Shown: piece by piece, positions 24,114 through 31,032 of the stretch
How the letters are laid out: each line of letters opens with the position of its first letter
Position numbering within the stretch: the first letter of the stretch is position 1
Sequence record: NC_031934.1
Direction: 5' to 3' (one strand)
DNA: 64,000 nucleotides
Source: Escherichia phage MX01
Notes under the pieces: model-generated
Seen by the model: only the letters and a program-made list of their open reading frames with translations
Database searches by the model: none
Told to the model about the DNA's origin: nothing
Made by a program: the position numbers and the translations under genes

Positions 24114-24120
24114 CAAAAAA

Positions 24121-24138
24121 GGAGAGCATATGCTCTCC
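24121..24138. terminator. Perfect palindromic hairpin GGAGAGCATATGCTCTCC at convergent junction after gene 54
   Basis: 18-nt perfect palindrome flanked by A6 and T3. Confidence 0.75.
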
Positions 24139-24148
24139 TTTAGGGGGT

Positions 24149-24439
24149 TTATTTACGGAACGAAATGAAACCTGCTGCAGTCATTAATGGTTGCTTTTTA
24201 ACAAACACTGTGACTGAAATAGGAGCTTCAGATTCAAGCTGACCAGTCACTACACCATTAAAGATATTTTCAGTTTGTTCTGGATGAGAAAAATTCTCAA
24301 CAGGTCGGATATCAAACTGTTTGTCTTCACCGAAAACTCGACGTAATTCATTACCTACGGCACTGTCAAACACTTCAGAAGCAGGGATAACGTTTTCAAC
24401 TACCAGTTCTTGACCATTAAAACGGAATGCAGATTTCAT
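24149..24439 (-). CDS. Hypothetical protein downstream of the alt array
   Basis: 96-aa ORF with RBS; position corresponds to the alt.-x slots of T4. Confidence 0.5.
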   Translation of the reverse strand: MKSAFRFNGQELVVENVIPASEVFDSAVGNELRRVFGEDKQFDIRPVENFSHPEQTENIFNGVVTGQLESEAPISVTVFVKKQPLMTAAGFISFRK

Positions 24440-24496
24440 AATGTTCTCCTCATGTTTGTGTAAGGTAATAGTACCACATCCTTGTGGTGTTGTAAA

Positions 24497-26620
24497 CTAC
24501 ATTTTGAATTTATTTGATAAAGAAGAGATGTCCAAAGATGCAGCAAGGATTTCCATAGCTTCGTTGCTTTCAGAAACGGATTCATTAACCAAGAATTGAC
24601 TGAATCCATCCATCAGGCGAACTTCACCAGTTTCCATCAAATGGTCACCATCGTAAACAGATTCGCTGAGCTCTGAAGGAGGTGTTACGGTAGCTTCCAT
24701 AAGGTATTTGTGAGATACTCTATCATTCATGGCAAAAGCTGCTACTTTATCAACCTTCAACAATAATCCACGCGGAAGGATAATTTCTGCTTCTTCGGCA
24801 TATTCTGTAAGGTCACCAGGAGCGATAACTTTAACTGCTTCAGCACCTCGAATAACCATACCAATTTCAGCAATTCTATCTGCAGGACCTTCAGGTGCAA
24901 TTGGATTACCAAACTCGTCTTCTTCCCATTCTACCTCTTCATCATCGACTTCACCCACATCAGATGAACTACCGCTAGCCAATTTAAACAACTCATCAGC
25001 GGAGGATAAAGAACCTTCACCACCAACAAAAACGGCTTGGTTGTCGAGGGCCATATAATTTTTACCAAATTCGCCAAAGATGTTAGGCTTTAATGAGGCT
25101 GACACAAAGTTCTTAAAGTAAAATGTTTTGTTATCGATATTATGACGCAGAATTTTGTATGGCAAATCCTGACCACGATACAAAATAGTACCCTTAGGAA
25201 GTTTAATACCCTTAGTAAATGCTGAGTCTAAATCCTTAATCAATTTAATAGCCGTTGTATTGTTTTCGGATTCAGGTTTACCTAAAAGGAACAAGTTCAT
25301 AGGAGCATATTCAGCTGCGCAATATTCAATAATAGCATTGCTTTCGTCTTTGGTTAGGCCCTTAGGTTTAATGAGCTCACCTGAATAAGCATATGCATCA
25401 CTAATAGAATCGTTAATTAGTTTATAAACGGCTTCCATAGCGAAAGCAATTCGGGATGCTTTCTCTGAAGGGGAGCCTTTAAAACGGGTACTCAGGTTAT
25501 TAACAATTTTCTTAATAATATCCAGACTATTGGTTGTATTGATTTGCGAAAGGCCACTTAAAAGTCTATCGACTTCTGTATTAAAAAATGCCATATTATT
25601 AGAGTAAATTTCAAACCCTTGTTTATCTCTATTAGCATAATTTAGTTTAAATTTACTATCAGTCATTAAAGCGTGTGTGAGAGCAATAGTGTATCTAAAG
25701 TTGGCAAGGTCCTCGCTCTTAGATTTAAACTGAGAAGCCTGGCGCATTTTGGTAATAGCACCTTTTTTAAAGTTCTGACTAATCTGTTCAATACCTTCGT
25801 TCTCAGGGCCTTCAGCCGTGTGAACCGGTACAGAAGCTTCAAACTCGTTATAAACCTGCAATTCTTTAGGGGACAAAGTTTCAGGCTCAGCAGTAGAATA
25901 CTGCGCCGCCGCTGCCATACGACGCGAAATCTTAGTACGAGTAATGACAGCCTTATCAGTACGTTTCTCTTCAACTTGTGCAATAGATGCCGCTACGGCT
26001 TCGACCTTACTTACGGCCTGGCCGGTTTTCTTAGAAACATACACTTCGCCAACTTTAGACTCAACTTTAGTATAAAGATCGGCATTAATTTCAGGCATAC
26101 CCTTGATATCTTCAATATTAGCACCACGACGTACTAAAAGAACGTAGGTATGTTTTCCGCTGAATTGGAACATGTCGTCAACAACTTTAAACTTACCACC
26201 GGTACGAGCCATAGCCAAGCGAGCTAATACGCGCTGAACGGTAGGACCTTTACCTTTCATTTTCTTAGTAGGGAAACGGAACAAAACCGCGTCCATTTTA
26301 AGTTTGTTTATTTGTTCATATATGGTATCGAAAATGGTGTTCAGTGTACCGAGTGGATCGGTACCCAAACCACCCTTGAGTTCTGCCGGAGCGCCTTTAG
26401 CAGATAAACTCATTAAGATAACATGGACGTACTTATCACCCGGCTTAACCATTTTAATAGCATCGCCTTCAGACGCGTATGAAACCATACGCGCTACTAA
26501 ATTGTCATTACCAGGAGCATGGACCGCAAAAATCTGCGGTACGCCCGAGCCAGGTTTAAGATTTGTTACTGGGTAATTTTTTTTATCGCTTTTATCAAAA
26601 ACTTCGTTTAAATTTTCCAT
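24497..26620 (-). CDS. alt: Alt-like ADP-ribosyltransferase, paralog 1
   Basis: 707 aa; N-terminal 230 aa conserved with the two neighbours and T4 Alt (PQIF, LSAKG, KLKGGLG, TKVESKVGEVY); C-terminal R-S-E signature YRGQ / FVSASL / EAEIILPRG. Confidence 0.85.
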   Translation of the reverse strand: MENLNEVFDKSDKKNYPVTNLKPGSGVPQIFAVHAPGNDNLVARMVSYASEGDAIKMVKPGDKYVHVILMSLSAKGAPAELKGGLGTDPLGTLNTIFDTIYEQINKLKMDAVLFRFPTKKMKGKGPTVQRVLARLAMARTGGKFKVVDDMFQFSGKHTYVLLVRRGANIEDIKGMPEINADLYTKVESKVGEVYVSKKTGQAVSKVEAVAASIAQVEEKRTDKAVITRTKISRRMAAAAQYSTAEPETLSPKELQVYNEFEASVPVHTAEGPENEGIEQISQNFKKGAITKMRQASQFKSKSEDLANFRYTIALTHALMTDSKFKLNYANRDKQGFEIYSNNMAFFNTEVDRLLSGLSQINTTNSLDIIKKIVNNLSTRFKGSPSEKASRIAFAMEAVYKLINDSISDAYAYSGELIKPKGLTKDESNAIIEYCAAEYAPMNLFLLGKPESENNTTAIKLIKDLDSAFTKGIKLPKGTILYRGQDLPYKILRHNIDNKTFYFKNFVSASLKPNIFGEFGKNYMALDNQAVFVGGEGSLSSADELFKLASGSSSDVGEVDDEEVEWEEDEFGNPIAPEGPADRIAEIGMVIRGAEAVKVIAPGDLTEYAEEAEIILPRGLLLKVDKVAAFAMNDRVSHKYLMEATVTPPSELSESVYDGDHLMETGEVRLMDGFSQFLVNESVSESNEAMEILAASLDISSLSNKFKM

Positions 26621-26623
26621 TAT

Positions 26624-28669
26624 TTACCCTTGGATGAATTTTTCTGGGATTTCGTCAAAATTAATACATGAAGCTAAAATAGGCATTATATCCACCTTGG
26701 TCGATTTGACAAATGAATCAAAAGACACAGGGTTGTCGGTCTCTGTTTCTACACCTTGGTAAACAACCAATTCGCCTGTTTCCATCAATGCATCGCCATC
26801 ATAGATAACCGCATTTTCTGCTAGTTGGTCTGTGGTCTGGATATCTGCTTCCAATAATTTGGTGTTGTAGTTTCCTTTATATGAGGCATCAGTAATTTTA
26901 GTAATCTTAACTGTAGTTCCACGTGGAAGAATAACCTCTTGTTCTGTTGGAGAACCTGACAATTCACCAGGCATAATTACGTTAATAGAGTCTGCACCAG
27001 AAATTTTCCAGCCGATGTTCATCATTGTATTTTCGGAACTCGTCAGCATACTTGGAAGAACAATTTCATTATCGCCTTGGAAAGATGTCCCAGCGCGATA
27101 GTCTTGATGTACTGCTGCCATTGCGACGTTTGATACCCAGCCGCCAAAGATAATTGGCTTAAGGGACGTTGATACATAGTTCCTGAAATAAAACAATTTT
27201 GAGTGTTTGATTTTATCAAAAGTGTTAACATTTAAATATTGCCCACGCCAAAGTGTAATATCAGGTGGCAATTTATGGCCAATTTCAAATGCCGCATCCA
27301 TATCGTTAATTACTTCAATTACACGCTGGCTATCAATGAATTCTGCATCCTCTTCATAATAATTACCCAACAAATAATTATTAACATCGGTATAATATTG
27401 GCCACAATAAGAAGAAATAGCCTCACGCTGCTCATACTCAAATCGATTATCGCTATAACCGGCTGTAAAATGCATAAGACTTTCTGATGCTTCATTAGCA
27501 AAGTCGGTAACAGCAGCACTTATACGTTGAGCATACTCTTGTTCCCAAAGCTCTGCTGCATATTCTGACGCATCCATATTAGGAGGGGCCTCATTCACTT
27601 TTCTTTCGATAAATGCAGCTTTGCGAAGGTTAAGAATCTCTGCACATGATTCGGCAAAAATCTGCATCTGCTTCATACTGCCAACAGGAGCACGTTTAAG
27701 TTCACGATGCATACGGTTAAAAATTGGGTCAGAGTCTTCGACTCGAATTTCTTCTTTCCAAACACCATTTGCTCGCATAGCCGTATCTGCCGCGCGCATA
27801 CGGTCCATAGTATTCGTTTCAGAAGGTCGAACAAAAATTTCTAGTTCTTCATAATCATCGATAAGTTCTGCCGTAGCCGGTCGACTAAACTTAGCAGCTT
27901 CTGCATCAATTTCGTCCCAACCTTCCGGAACTTCATCTCGAGGAGAATACTGGGCTGCGGCCACAGCACGCCTAGAAATCTTGGTAGTAGTAATAACAGC
28001 CTTATCCGTACGTTTTTCTTCGACTGCCGCTATACTAGCAGATAGTGCTTCTATTTTGGTTACTGATTGGCCGGTTTTCTTAGAAACATAAACCTCACCA
28101 ACTTTAGACTCAACCTTAGTGTAAAGGTCTGCATCAATTTCAGGCATACCTTTTATGTCCTCAATATTAGCTTGTTTACGAACCAGTAAAACGTATGTAT
28201 GTTTGCCTGTAAATTGATACATATCATCGACAACTTTAAACTTGCCGCCAGTACGAGCCATCGCCAAACGTGCCAATACACGTTGAACAGTAGGACCCTT
28301 ACCTTTCATTTTCTTGGTAGGGAAGCGGAAAAGAACTGCATCCATTTTAAGTTTATTTACCTGTTCATATACCGTATCGAAAATGGTATTCAATGTACCA
28401 AATGGGTCAGAACCTAACCCACCTTTCAACTCGGCTGGGGTACCCTTAGCAGACAAACTCATTAGAATAACGTGGACATATTTGTCGCCTGGCTTAACCA
28501 TTTTAATAGCGTCTCCTTGAGACGCATAAGATACCATACGAGCAACCAAGTTATCATTACCTGGTGCTTGGATAGAGAAAATCTGTGGAATACCGGAACC
28601 TGGTTTAAGATTTATTACTGGATAGTTTTTAGCGGAATCACTATCAAAAACTTCGTTTAAATTTTCCAT
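26624..28669 (-). CDS. Alt-like ADP-ribosyltransferase, paralog 2
   Basis: 681 aa; same conserved N-terminal domain; R-S-E signature WRGQ / YVSTSL / EQEVILPRG; divergent central region. Confidence 0.85.
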   Translation of the reverse strand: MENLNEVFDSDSAKNYPVINLKPGSGIPQIFSIQAPGNDNLVARMVSYASQGDAIKMVKPGDKYVHVILMSLSAKGTPAELKGGLGSDPFGTLNTIFDTVYEQVNKLKMDAVLFRFPTKKMKGKGPTVQRVLARLAMARTGGKFKVVDDMYQFTGKHTYVLLVRKQANIEDIKGMPEIDADLYTKVESKVGEVYVSKKTGQSVTKIEALSASIAAVEEKRTDKAVITTTKISRRAVAAAQYSPRDEVPEGWDEIDAEAAKFSRPATAELIDDYEELEIFVRPSETNTMDRMRAADTAMRANGVWKEEIRVEDSDPIFNRMHRELKRAPVGSMKQMQIFAESCAEILNLRKAAFIERKVNEAPPNMDASEYAAELWEQEYAQRISAAVTDFANEASESLMHFTAGYSDNRFEYEQREAISSYCGQYYTDVNNYLLGNYYEEDAEFIDSQRVIEVINDMDAAFEIGHKLPPDITLWRGQYLNVNTFDKIKHSKLFYFRNYVSTSLKPIIFGGWVSNVAMAAVHQDYRAGTSFQGDNEIVLPSMLTSSENTMMNIGWKISGADSINVIMPGELSGSPTEQEVILPRGTTVKITKITDASYKGNYNTKLLEADIQTTDQLAENAVIYDGDALMETGELVVYQGVETETDNPVSFDSFVKSTKVDIMPILASCINFDEIPEKFIQG

Positions 28670-28672
28670 TAT

Positions 28673-30757
28673 TTACCCTTGGATGAATTTTTCTGGGATG
28701 TCATAGAGGTCTATGCATGAAGCCAAAAGAGACAGCACATCAACCCGTGTAGATTTAACAAATGAATCAAAAGATACAGGGCTTTCGGAAGTATCGAAAT
28801 CATCTTGATATACGACCAACTCGCCGGTTTCCATTAGTACGTCACCATCATACACCACAGATTCTTGAAGCTCATCTGTTGTCATAACTTCGGCTTGGAT
28901 GAGTTTTGTATTATTAGATGTTGTTCCATCATTATTAGAAGCATCTGTTATTTTATTAACTTTGACCATTAATCCACGTGGTAGAATAACTTCAGCTTCA
29001 GTTGCTATTCCGAGATTTCCTGGATATACAACATTAACTTTATGAGCCCCATCAATCGCCCATCCTATTTGAACTTTAACGTATTCAGGATTTTCTTTAT
29101 ATGCTCTTATTTCATTAGGATTGATAGTTATTCCTTCTTCATTTTTATCGACTGTCAATTCATTGCGAACTTCAGGTTCTAAAAGACCAATACCTGCGTG
29201 GGTAACACCAAAACGTCCGAAAATGATAGGAGTTAATGAAGTAGATACAAAATTTCTAAAATAAAACACTTTATTTTTAACTAGTGCTTCGTATATAGGA
29301 GCAGTCATACTCTGTGCACGATAAACTGTGATGCCTTCTGGTATACGGTCGCCATTTTCAAAAGCAGAATCCAAATTATTAACTGCAGATTCGATATCTT
29401 TTTCACTCATAATCTCATAGTTATGAGGATTGTAACGACCTAAAAGAAGGTTATTTATATCGCCGTATCCAGAGCCACAATATTCTCTGATGCCACGCTT
29501 TTGCGATGGGGTATATTTAGAACCCTCACGAGCAATAGTAATATCAACCATTGAACCACCACCCACACCAGCAAAACTATATACGCGTTTTTTAATGAAT
29601 TTGGTCTTGGCTGCTTTCCACTTGGACTCGGTCAATTCATTCCAGAGGTCATCAGGTTGTCCTTTACGAGTTTTGTTATGCGTAGCCAACCACTCGCCTT
29701 TGTATTCTTCGAAAACGGTATTAATAGCAGAGGCATATTTTTCTAGAGCTTTAACAGATGTCAAAGGTTCGTTTTTGATGGCTGATAGGATTTTCTCTTT
29801 AATTTTCTCTTTGATTTCACCTATACCGTGAAGAGGAAACATTTTATAATCGTAATGCAATTCTTCAGCAGTACCTTCAGCTACTATATTAGCAACCTTA
29901 TTTTTAGCCGCAGGAGAATTGTTATTAGTAACCATTTCCTGGGCCTCAGGGATTAATGGAACTGTTGCCGGTTTATTAAAATCCGCTGCAGTAGCTTCAT
30001 ATTTCTTAAACAATTCACTTTCATTACGATAAGATTCCAATGATTGGCTTGCTGCAATGGCGCGCCTAGAAATCTTAGTCTTGGTTATAACCATTTTATC
30101 AGTGCGACGTTCTTCAACCTTAGCAATACTGCCGGCAATAGCAGTTTCTTTAGTAACCTGCACACCTTCTTTTTTGGAAATATAAACTTCACCGACATCA
30201 GAATCTACCTTAGTATACAATTCAGCATTAATTCCAGGCATACCTTTGATATCTTCGATATCAGCTTGTTTACGGACTACCAGGATGTAAGTATGTTTAC
30301 CGGTAAATTGGTACATAGCCGGAACCACTTTAAAACGTCCACCGGTTTTCTGTGTTACCAAACGTTGGATAATACGTTGAACGATAGGGCCTTGACCTTT
30401 CATTTTCTTGGTAGGAAAACGGAACATCACGGCATCCATACGAAGCTTTTTAACTTGGTCATAAACCACATCAAAAATAGTATTAATCGCATCTACAGGA
30501 GTAGGGCCAAGGCCACCTTTAAGTTCGGCTGGAGTACCTTTAGCTGAAAGGCTCATAAGGATAACGTGGGCATATTTATCACCCATTTTAACTTGTTTAA
30601 TAGCATCACCTTCAGAAGCGTAGGATACCATACGAGCAACTAATTGGGACTCTGCATCGCCAATCTTCCAAATCTGGGGTACTTTAAGTTTTGGGTTCAA
30701 GTTTACTGTAGGCAGAGTGCCTTCGGACTCAAACACTTCATTTAATTGTTCGGTCAT
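28673..30757 (-). CDS. Alt-like ADP-ribosyltransferase, paralog 3
   Basis: 694 aa; same conserved N-terminal domain; R-S-E signature YRAQ / FVSTSL / EAEVILPRG; C-terminal tail shared with paralog 2. Confidence 0.85.
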   Translation of the reverse strand: MTEQLNEVFESEGTLPTVNLNPKLKVPQIWKIGDAESQLVARMVSYASEGDAIKQVKMGDKYAHVILMSLSAKGTPAELKGGLGPTPVDAINTIFDVVYDQVKKLRMDAVMFRFPTKKMKGQGPIVQRIIQRLVTQKTGGRFKVVPAMYQFTGKHTYILVVRKQADIEDIKGMPGINAELYTKVDSDVGEVYISKKEGVQVTKETAIAGSIAKVEERRTDKMVITKTKISRRAIAASQSLESYRNESELFKKYEATAADFNKPATVPLIPEAQEMVTNNNSPAAKNKVANIVAEGTAEELHYDYKMFPLHGIGEIKEKIKEKILSAIKNEPLTSVKALEKYASAINTVFEEYKGEWLATHNKTRKGQPDDLWNELTESKWKAAKTKFIKKRVYSFAGVGGGSMVDITIAREGSKYTPSQKRGIREYCGSGYGDINNLLLGRYNPHNYEIMSEKDIESAVNNLDSAFENGDRIPEGITVYRAQSMTAPIYEALVKNKVFYFRNFVSTSLTPIIFGRFGVTHAGIGLLEPEVRNELTVDKNEEGITINPNEIRAYKENPEYVKVQIGWAIDGAHKVNVVYPGNLGIATEAEVILPRGLMVKVNKITDASNNDGTTSNNTKLIQAEVMTTDELQESVVYDGDVLMETGELVVYQDDFDTSESPVSFDSFVKSTRVDVLSLLASCIDLYDIPEKFIQG

Positions 30758-30793
30758 AATAATTCCTCTTTAATAACCTTATTTATGCCAGAA

Positions 30794-30809
30794 AAGGCCC
30801 GAAGGCCTT
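30794..30809 (-). terminator. Hairpin AAGGCC-CGAA-GGCCTT upstream of alt paralog 3
   Basis: 6-bp stem with tetraloop in the only sizeable gap flanking the alt array. Confidence 0.45.
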
Positions 30810-31032
30810 AAAGTGGTAGCAACGTACGGTATACTTCAAATTTAGGACCCTTTTCATAGCGGTCGAAATTATCTTTAAAATCAGCGAATGCGATTTCATT
30901 TTCAAATTCAAGGACAATTTGGGACACTGCAGTGGAGACATCCCCACCTTCTTTATATCCAATAACCACGGTTTCTAAATAAGCTTTCATATTATAGTCC
31001 AGTTTGAGACCAATCACCAAATACATCTTCAA
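30808..31032 (-). CDS. Hypothetical small protein between alt array and ligase
   Basis: 74-aa ORF; overlaps ligase 3' end by about 40 nt and a terminator hairpin, so boundaries uncertain. Confidence 0.35.
   Translation of the reverse strand: MKMYLVIGLKLDYNMKAYLETVVIGYKEGGDVSTAVSQIVLEFENEIAFADFKDNFDRYEKGPKFEVYRTLLPL

Follow-up and report, generated by a model that had tools for sequence, protein, structure and literature searches.

The window analysed here, a 64,000-nucleotide (nt) stretch of the genome of Escherichia phage MX01 (NC_031934.1), carries a tandem array of three minus-strand alt genes, numbered alt-1 to alt-3 as they would be transcribed (Table 1). With a probability of roughly 60%, the array encodes three head-packaged, injected arginine ADP-ribosyltransferases (ARTs) with different target preferences, and its copy number changes by recombination. 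The stretch belongs to Dhakavirus, i.e. to the JS98-like T-even coliphages, and its best match is Escherichia phage C6, with 96% identity over the whole 6.3 kb. The three open reading frames (ORFs), their lengths, coordinates and 3-nt spacing are exactly as given in a first-pass annotation made from the sequence alone, which had taken the genes for a diversified set of injected effectors, possibly with a role in counter-defence. This is still the best reading in the light of the catalytic residues, divergent modules, processing hallmarks and selection described below, while distinct targets and counter-defence are presumed.

Four modules can be distinguished in each protein: an N-terminal (N) domain at residues ~1-240 that ends at KISRR, a helical central domain (~241-425), the ART domain (~426-625) and a tail formed by the last 54-63 amino acids (aa). 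Identity among the three proteins is 66-88% in the N domain, 12-18% in the central domain, 33-39% in the ART domain and 37-68% in the tail. The shared N-terminal domain of the first-pass annotation is real, with Alt-2 and Alt-3 88% identical over ~240 aa and each 66-69% identical to Alt-1, and it matches phrog_802 at positions 1-237 (E = 7e-121). The central regions had been called unalignable by eye, which is fair at such pairwise identities, yet they are homologous at profile level, since each matches positions ~240-430 of phrog_802, the Alt profile (E 1e-19 to 1e-28), and they are all-helical in both structural models. The alternative that they are unrelated insertions was rejected on these grounds. 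The isoelectric points (pI) of the central domains are 9.45, 4.69 and 8.6 for Alt-1, Alt-2 and Alt-3, respectively.

Each of the three proteins carries the complete R-S-E signature of ARTs, as had been proposed, with motifs that align with the catalytic residues of T4 Alt and with matches to Pfam PF03496 (ADPrib_exo_Tox) at E = 9e-36, 2e-21 and 4e-17 for Alt-1, Alt-2 and Alt-3. These values are well above the cut-off and far beyond chance, and the match in Alt-3 falls in two stretches. The other motifs quoted at first sight are present, with some corrections: Alt-1 reads PQIW instead of PQIF and TKVDSDVGEVYISKKEG, and Alt-3 reads KISRRM and has S-A-S instead of S-T-S. The R, S-x-S and ExE columns are invariant in an alignment of the window proteins with those of T4 and JS98, and in 65 diverse homologues the two glutamates and the first serine never vary (S507, E610 and E612 in Alt-3), with the arginine at least 90% conserved. 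The ExE glutamate corresponds to E577 of T4 Alt, allowing for a one-residue numbering offset due to an upstream Met (MM start), and the E577A substitution abolishes T4 Alt activity (PMC11404850). Arginine-specific protein ARTs typically carry an ExE motif (PMC8120803), and the window proteins would therefore be arginine-specific ARTs.

AlphaFold (AF2) models of Alt-2 and Alt-3, built from a 65-sequence alignment, recover the expected C3/Vis/VIP2-type ART fold for the two proteins modelled. The Alt-2 model has a mean predicted local distance difference test (pLDDT) score of 79.9 and a predicted template modelling (pTM) score of 0.70, with means of 88-90 pLDDT in the ten-residue blocks at the catalytic residues. 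For Alt-3 the values are 78.1 and 0.71, and the best Foldseek matches are Vis/C3, with a probability of 1.0; the nearest structural neighbours of the two models are Vis, C3, iota and VIP2. The insertion that lies between S-x-S and ExE in Alt-3 is disordered, with pLDDT <50 at residues 552-565 and 573-578.

All three genes are maintained under strong purifying selection. The ratio of non-synonymous to synonymous substitution rates (dN/dS) is 0.03-0.11 for every alt gene compared with its orthologues in C6, KIT01, IME08, WG01, JS98 and dhaeg (0.056-0.073 for alt-1 and 0.03-0.065 for alt-3). It is low in all modules, with a maximum of 0.17, a range of 0.03-0.17 in the central domain and 0-0.08 in the ART modules, and the ART and tail of Alt-3 show zero non-synonymous changes against KIT01 and WG01. 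The Alt-3 orthologue of phage vB_EcoM_005 (MK295203, 3001-5025) is a 674-aa protein without the 33-aa segment that holds ExE and ILPRG (...TEYAEATVTPP...), which represents either a natural inactivation or a sequencing or assembly error.

The proteins also carry sequence marks of predicted maturation in the phage head. In T4 heads, mass spectrometry has placed the cuts made in Alt by the gp21 prohead protease after ITE-6 and LTE-619, with loss of 6 N-terminal and 63 C-terminal residues, to leave a mature form of 68.2 kDa (PMC5694885; summarised in PMC9026906). Application of this rule to the T4 Alt sequence returns 68.2 kDa exactly, which validates the mapping of the sites. All three window proteins have homologous L-N-E and L-x-E motifs, with L and E invariant in the alignment with the T4 and JS98 proteins, and the Glu of the C-terminal site (E618 in Alt-2) is invariant in the 65 homologues. 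The C-propeptide of Alt-3 is 37-39% identical to those of Alt-1 and Alt-2, and its closest match is that of the downstream alt gene of phage HP3 (64%).

The three genes probably form a single late, co-transcribed and translationally coupled unit, as suggested by the 3-nt gaps between them and by the AAGGG ahead of each internal ATG. At the equivalent place T4 has the same upstream hairpin, followed by a perfect TATAAATA late promoter. A perfect TATAAATA box is also found inside alt-1, at 29452-29459 (-), ~780 nt upstream of the start of alt-2, and this box is enriched across the window (17 found against 6.3 expected). In the proposed mechanism, a single promoter ahead of alt-1 would drive late transcription of the genes, translation would be coupled, and the products, each laid out as an N-propeptide of 6-7 residues, an N domain of ~230 aa, a fast-diverging helical central domain, an ART domain and an acidic C-propeptide of ~55-63 aa, would enter the prohead core. 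Both ends would then be trimmed by gp21 at L/I-x-E sites. The mature enzymes would be injected with the DNA and would mono-ADP-ribosylate arginines of host proteins within seconds of infection: RNA polymerase alpha in the case of the T4-like enzyme and others, possibly defence proteins such as MazF-type toxins, in the case of the remaining two. Homologous recombination in the N domain and at the KISRR boundary would swap, insert and delete effector cassettes, also between phage genera.

Table 1. Features of the alt locus of phage MX01, with the predicted mature proteins and the best matches along alt-2; positions are those of the window unless residues or gene positions are indicated
Feature	Position	Strand	Description
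alt-1	28673-30757	-	694 aa; first gene transcribed; orthologue of T4 alt by position and sequence; cassette A
alt-2	26624-28669	-	681 aa; extra middle gene, mosaic; cassette C
alt-3	24497-26620	-	707 aa; last gene; cassette D
Alt-1 N-terminal domain	30062-30757	-	aa 1-232; ends at KISRR
Alt-2 N-terminal domain	27968-28669	-	aa 1-234; putative recombination anchor
Alt-3 N-terminal domain	25919-26620	-	aa 1-234; putative recombination anchor
Alt-1 catalytic triad region	28991-29323	-	R480 in YRAQ479 (29312-29323); STS505-507 (29237-29245); E587-A-E589 (28991-28999)
Alt-2 catalytic triad region	26936-27250	-	R475 in WRGQ474 (27239-27250); STS500-502 (27164-27172); E576-Q-E578 (26936-26944)
Alt-3 catalytic triad region	24785-25180	-	R482 in YRGQ481 (25169-25180); S507-A-S509 (25094-25102); E610-A-E612 (24785-24793)
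Alt-3 acidic insertion SSSDVGEVDDEEVEWEEDEFGNPIAPEGPADRIAE	24866-24970	-	35 aa, residues 551-585, between S-x-S and ExE; splits the Pfam match
Alt-1 N-propeptide	30737-30757	-	7 aa, MTEQLNE
Alt-2 N-propeptide	28652-28669	-	6 aa, MENLNE
Alt-3 N-propeptide	26603-26620	-	6 aa, MENLNE
Alt-1 C-propeptide	28676-28861	-	62 aa after L-Q-E632; acidic, pI 4.05; homologous to the 63-aa T4 Alt propeptide
Alt-2 C-propeptide	26627-26815	-	63 aa after L-A-E618; identity to the Alt-1 C-propeptide 68%
Alt-3 C-propeptide	24500-24661	-	54 aa after L-S-E653; different class
Alt-1 predicted mature form	residues 8-632		LNE-7 / LQE-632; 69.4 kDa, pI 8.85
Alt-2 predicted mature form	residues 7-618		LNE-6 / LAE-618; 68.4 kDa, pI 5.24; acidic central domain
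Alt-3 predicted mature form	residues 7-653		LNE-6 / LSE-653; 71.2 kDa, pI 6.52
Upstream control region of the array	30780-30807	-	hairpin, late-promoter-like box, then GAGG
Hairpin GGCCTTCGGGCC and T run	30796-30807	-	3' of the alt.1 stop; predicted to end the ligase/alt.1 transcript
CATAAATA box	30780-30787	-	7/8 match to the T4 late-promoter box, one mismatch
GAGG Shine-Dalgarno sequence	30765-30768	-	before the alt-1 ATG
alt-1/alt-2 junction	28670-28672	-	3 nt; stop TAA, ATA, ATG; AAGGG 7 nt upstream of the ATG
alt-2/alt-3 junction	26621-26623	-	3 nt; TAA-ATA-ATG; sequence duplicate of the first junction
alt-2, N domain, first part	nt 1-350 of alt-2		best match N domain of the WG01 downstream gene (JS98, E005 over the first ~180 nt), 92-97%
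alt-2, N domain, second part	nt ~350-700 of alt-2		best match diverged Dhakavirus N domain, ~80%
alt-2, nt 720-1080	nt 720-1080 of alt-2		best match Gaprivervirus SP18 altB, 90-96%
alt-2, nt 1080-1860	nt 1080-1860 of alt-2		best match Gaprivervirus SP18 altB, 67-84%
alt-2, C-propeptide			best match Alt-1 C-propeptide, ~70%
alt.1	30808-31032	-	mechanical ORF; begins at a TTG overlapping the ligase gene
alt.-3 promoter	24468-24496	-	own promoter, sigma-70/T4-early-like; TTTACA-17-TACTAT with TG extension
alt.-3 homologue	24149-24439	-	96 aa, DUF5498/phrog_1739; neighbour, outside the Alt family
Convergent terminator after alt.-3	24118-24141	-	strong

The Alt N domain is found at 1813 places in 1200 phage records. 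The same three-gene array is present in eight independently sequenced phages, and in QL01, AnYang and fDHCT2, as in C6, the identity is ~96% at the nucleotide level over the whole 6.3 kb. Module by module, the window proteins are 93-100% identical to the Alts of C6, and the same holds for Alt-2 and Alt-3 when compared with those of KIT01. When the genes are classed by cassette, the arrays fall into A-C-D (the MX01 window, C6 and, from their alignment over the full array, QL01, AnYang and fDHCT2), B-C-D (KIT01), E-A-D, A-D and B-D types. About 18 of the 42 Dhakavirus records have three alt genes, in two different arrangements, the second of which occurs in eight other records (WG01, LQ5 and ABTNLS3 included) and has a 631-aa gene, without the YDGDxLMETGE tail, ahead of the array. 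The Alt-3 cassette is found in all 42 records at an identity of at least 90%, and the Alt-2 cassette in 10.

From the single alt gene of T4, the first-pass annotation had concluded that the triplication looks lineage-specific, which does not hold for the array as a whole: the one gene confined to a sub-lineage is the third, middle one, in the 10 Dhakavirus records just mentioned. JS98-type phages (altA-altB of JS98 and IME08) and Gaprivervirus (altA-altB of SP18) have two alt genes, and ~400 records, mostly of Tequatrovirus, carry an intact second alt; two-gene arrays of this genus include those of HP3, RB3 and PST. In T4 itself (NC_000866, 4066-4451) a frameshifted relic corresponding to codons 1-117 of a second alt lies 3 nt after the alt stop, behind the same junction as in the window, and the T4 record, under the names alt.-1/alt.-2, describes it as a duplicate of the beginning of alt that has decayed. 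Phage HP3 (NC_041919, 6062-8119) has an intact 685-aa second alt at this position, with the same N-terminus as the relic, and its first Alt is 96-100% identical to that of T4. T4 is thus the exception, since most of its relatives keep the second gene intact. The taxonomy line of the HP3 record reads 'Rosemountvirus'; its alt locus is T4-like, and the field is probably wrong. Alt-3 and the downstream Alt of HP3, which are 46%, 59% and 64% identical in the central, ART and tail modules, belong to the same paralogue class, and an array of two genes, one of the T4-Alt class and one of the Alt-3 class, is shared by Tequatrovirus and Dhakavirus and probably ancestral to both. The first-pass reading is not refuted by close relatives, since copy number varies among them and the extra copies are not known to have a redundant function.

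The structure of alt-2 suggests how copy number may change. A sliding-window comparison of nucleotide identity along the gene resolves it into segments with different best matches (Table 1). The central and ART parts of the protein are 85% and 76% identical to the SP18 'altb' protein, and the N domains of the two are related at ~50% nucleotide and 41% protein identity. The downstream genes of WG01, JS98 and E005 are Alt-2-like over their first ~180-340 nt; in WG01, which has a single downstream gene, this likeness extends over the first ~340 nt, and from nt 361 the gene is 99-100% Alt-3-like. Such a pattern is what a crossover between N-domain repeats in neighbouring alt genes would leave behind, with the Alt-2 cassette either gained or lost in the event, the breakpoint pattern alone being compatible with both directions.

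The first position of the array also varies. There, cassettes A and B, which are 36% and 61% identical in their central and ART parts, are flanked by N and tail modules with 94-98% identity. At the nucleotide level, cassette A shares ~81% identity with the alt of Shfl2/T2-type Tequatroviruses, and it matches the alt of T4 over just 10% of its length. It is also found as 'alta' of IME08 and as the middle gene of WG01, and Alt-3 corresponds to 'altb' of JS98. To judge from these comparisons, the locus behaves as a cassette site, in which the N domain and C-propeptide flank, and would serve as recombination anchors for, swappable central-plus-catalytic modules that appear to move within and between genera. 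A more ambitious version of this view is tentative: the N domain and propeptides may be a general chassis for delivery in the head, as well as recombination anchors, and the helical central and ART domains an exchangeable warhead, of at least five classes in Dhakavirus and Gaprivervirus, each with its own host target and some directed at anti-phage defence proteins. If so, the Alt repertoire would help to decide which hosts a phage can exploit, much as Ip1-3 act against GmrSD nucleases.

In the models the N domain adopts an alpha/beta fold with weak but repeated matches to the GNAT fold, and its conserved K-x-x-G-x-G loop is flanked by a strand and a helix. More speculatively, it may bind a nucleotide or a coenzyme A-type ligand, or hold a second activity. 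Pfam gave no credible match to the domain even at E <= 10; PF26846 appears in the precomputed annotation of every Alt homologue, and hmmscan of the Alt proteins against the Pfam copy used here gave no match to it. Sequence searches with Alt-1 or with the N-domain profile returned no solved Alt structure. Among 1.84 billion representatives the profile retrieves almost only Alt-like proteins, in ~70 clusters at 50% identity, and six of the ten most distant or atypical clusters scanned still match an ART domain. The idea that the N domain is a general delivery module joined to many types of effector is not supported by these 70 clusters, in which an ART is nearly always attached. Two rare metagenomic proteins, P0177 (541 aa) and P0174 (1142 aa), have an Alt-type N domain and C-terminal parts without a Pfam match. 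P0177 has no recognisable R/STS/ExE and P0174 may hold degenerate ART-like repeats; both are possible examples of the Alt chassis with other cargo.

What the three enzymes modify can be approached from T4 Alt, a core component present in ~40 copies per head that enters the host with the DNA (PMC9958956, PMC9026906), and which modifies Arg265 of one RNA polymerase alpha subunit, Arg84 of MazF and ~27 proteins in all (PMC2988021, PMC8120803). Different host targets are most likely for the three MX01 enzymes, because conserved delivery parts are joined to central and ART modules that differ, in charge as well as in sequence. Several points weigh against this reading. Head packaging, gp21 cleavage and enzyme activity of the window proteins are predicted from motif homology, and the box in front of alt-1, CATAAATA, is one mismatch away from the late-promoter consensus. 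In Alt-3, S-A-S takes the place of S-T-S and the disordered acidic loop of 35 aa lies within the ART domain, and the vB_EcoM_005 record, unless in error, indicates that loss of ExE from this paralogue is tolerated and that it is dispensable at least sometimes. Moreover, T4 Alt is non-essential and promiscuous, and the partitioning of targets among paralogues need not be clean.

The most serious alternative, although an unlikely one, is redundancy: three enzymes with the same principal target, alpha Arg265, and the same promiscuous set, would provide a higher dose or cover for host variants, inhibitors or hydrolases of ADP-ribosylation. T4 offers a precedent, as Alt and ModA both modify alpha R265 (PMC2988021), ExE is kept in all three proteins, implying arginine specificity, and the presence of two or three genes among close relatives suggests that no single paralogue beyond two is required. 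Plain dosage copies would not be expected, however, to differ so far in their ART and central modules, with opposite net charge, and to have each of these divergent modules under strong purifying selection, and the paralogue classes are ancient and kept distinct across genera. A separate alternative, that the array is a recent duplication without function or an artefact of assembling a repeated gene, might be suspected from direct repeats of 147-300 nt that connect the three genes (repeat D3 is 147 nt long, at 84%) and from the ~50 nt around the two junctions, which are near-identical duplicates. The repeats are only 64-84% identical, though, the cassettes are completely different, and intact ORFs under purifying selection (dN/dS 0.03-0.11) make up the same array in eight independently sequenced genomes, so that this explanation is effectively refuted.

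Two further possibilities, both improbable, concern what the proteins do. One or two paralogues might be mainly structural, as core 'filler' of the head that affects packaging density or ejection, with enzyme activity secondary or lost. The abundance of Alt in the T4 core (PMC9958956) would fit this, as would the greater amount of DNA packaged by T4 alt- mutants (PMC3012670), the fact that the N domain and propeptides, not the ART domain, are the most conserved parts, and the vB_EcoM_005 protein without ExE; it is difficult to reconcile with the conservation of the catalytic residues in the three genes and the 65 homologues, with the dN/dS of 0-0.08 in ART modules and the unchanged Alt-3 ART and tail, or with an ART fold that is modelled with high confidence. 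Slightly less probable still is that at least one paralogue acts on an unconventional substrate, by ADP-ribosylation of RNA or DNA or by RNAylation with NAD-capped RNA. ModB of T4, a paralogue that belongs to the same clade, links NAD-capped RNA to proteins (bioRxiv 10.1101/2021.06.04.446905 / PMC10468400), nucleic acids are modified by some R-S-E ARTs, e.g. Scabin and SCO5461 (PMC8120803), and the basic central domains of Alt-1 and Alt-3 could bind nucleic acid; the best structural neighbours are nevertheless the protein-arginine or protein-targeting toxins Vis, C3, iota and VIP2, and ExE is typical of protein-arginine ARTs (PMC8120803). Each of these rivals fits the evidence less well than three injected arginine ARTs with different target preferences.

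Among known systems, four features of the T4 gpAlt family (PHROG 802) are present in the window: an ART domain with R/S-x-S/ExE, an N domain with a helical centre, gp21-site motifs and the locus. The window proteins share with T4 gpAlt the full-length domain order, at 34-49% identity (49% for Alt-1), the genomic position and the upstream hairpin with a late-promoter-like box, and Alt-1 would be its nearest functional counterpart. They differ from it in number (one gene and a relic in T4, three intact genes in MX01), in central domains only 16-36% identical to that of T4, in the acidic central domain of Alt-2 and in the acidic 35-aa loop and S-A-S of Alt-3. The closest conceptual precedent for several injected paralogues with one target each is Ip1, Ip2 and Ip3 of T4, each of which inhibits a different GmrSD nuclease (PMC12373910). 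Like the Ips, the window Alts are, by prediction, multiple head-packaged, gp21-processed, injected and non-essential proteins from a variable locus. The sequences are unrelated, the Ips being small stoichiometric inhibitors with a targeting peptide of ~10 aa and the Alts enzymes of ~70 kDa with a 230-aa N domain and two propeptides.

The catalytic fold and motif set are also those of the C3-like and binary-toxin R-S-E ARTs (Vis, C3bot, iota Ia, VIP2, CDTa and Certhrax; PF03496), but these are secreted bacterial toxins with other delivery domains and are 12-22% identical, whereas Alts are delivered through phage head and tail. Matches to two-domain toxins are confined to ~200-250 residues (TMt ~0.3), and the duplicated ART-like N-terminal adaptor, which serves a pore-forming B component, and the secretion signal of binary toxins were not found in the window Alts, which have a helical upstream region and an alpha/beta N domain. 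They share a fold with the clostridial binary and C3-like toxins (VIP2, iota Ia, C2I, C3) and are not members of that group. Polymorphic toxins and MuF-fused phage effectors likewise combine a conserved, delivery-associated N-terminal module with rapidly exchanged effector modules and boundary recombination (PMC5512222, PMC9503650). The Alt N domain is not MuF, and its ~70 clusters almost always carry an ART and not diverse toxin types.

The flanks of the array match the T4 alt locus. DNA ligase (gene 30) and alt.1 lie upstream, and alt.-3 and then the convergent baseplate genes 54, 48 and 29 downstream; the array is oriented opposite to the baseplate genes and, in synteny with T4, is flanked by alt.1/ligase and alt.-3/gene 54. 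In the alt.1 ORF the Pfam 'Phage_blade' match spans residues 15-74 only, and most relatives annotate a protein of 56-62 aa, so that the real start is probably the ATG at 30990. C-terminal read-through extensions of T4 Alt.-3 permit escape from the CmdTAC defence system (PMC11618068), and the MX01 homologue equals T4 Alt.-3 in length, at 96 aa.

The array as such is already known, since the same genes are annotated in related phages, and MX01 is another A-C-D isolate in which nothing essential differs. A literature search on multi-copy alt, JS98, Dhakavirus, QL01, WG01 and altA-altB arrays found nothing beyond gene tables. New here are the mapping of processing sites on three paralogues, the purifying selection, the paralogue classes that cross genera and the evidence for recombination and cassette exchange. 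Most copies are labelled Alt-like or RNA polymerase ADP-ribosyltransferases in GenBank, and some records read 'hypothetical protein'; to call all of them 'RNA polymerase ADP-ribosylase' probably over-assigns function.

Alt is a textbook injected phage enzyme, the role of which is still vague: it is non-essential and has ~27 substrates, MazF included. Phages with two or three diverged and maintained Alts are a natural comparative system, in which shared delivery parts are combined with differing modules for presumed target recognition and catalysis, and which could reveal the determinants of Alt substrate choice and whether injected ARTs serve counter-defence. Laboratory T4 strains under-represent the natural Alt repertoire and lack a paralogue present in most of their relatives. 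In practical terms the consequences are modest, and current understanding is not overturned; the finding would carry greater weight if the paralogues had distinct, defence-related targets.

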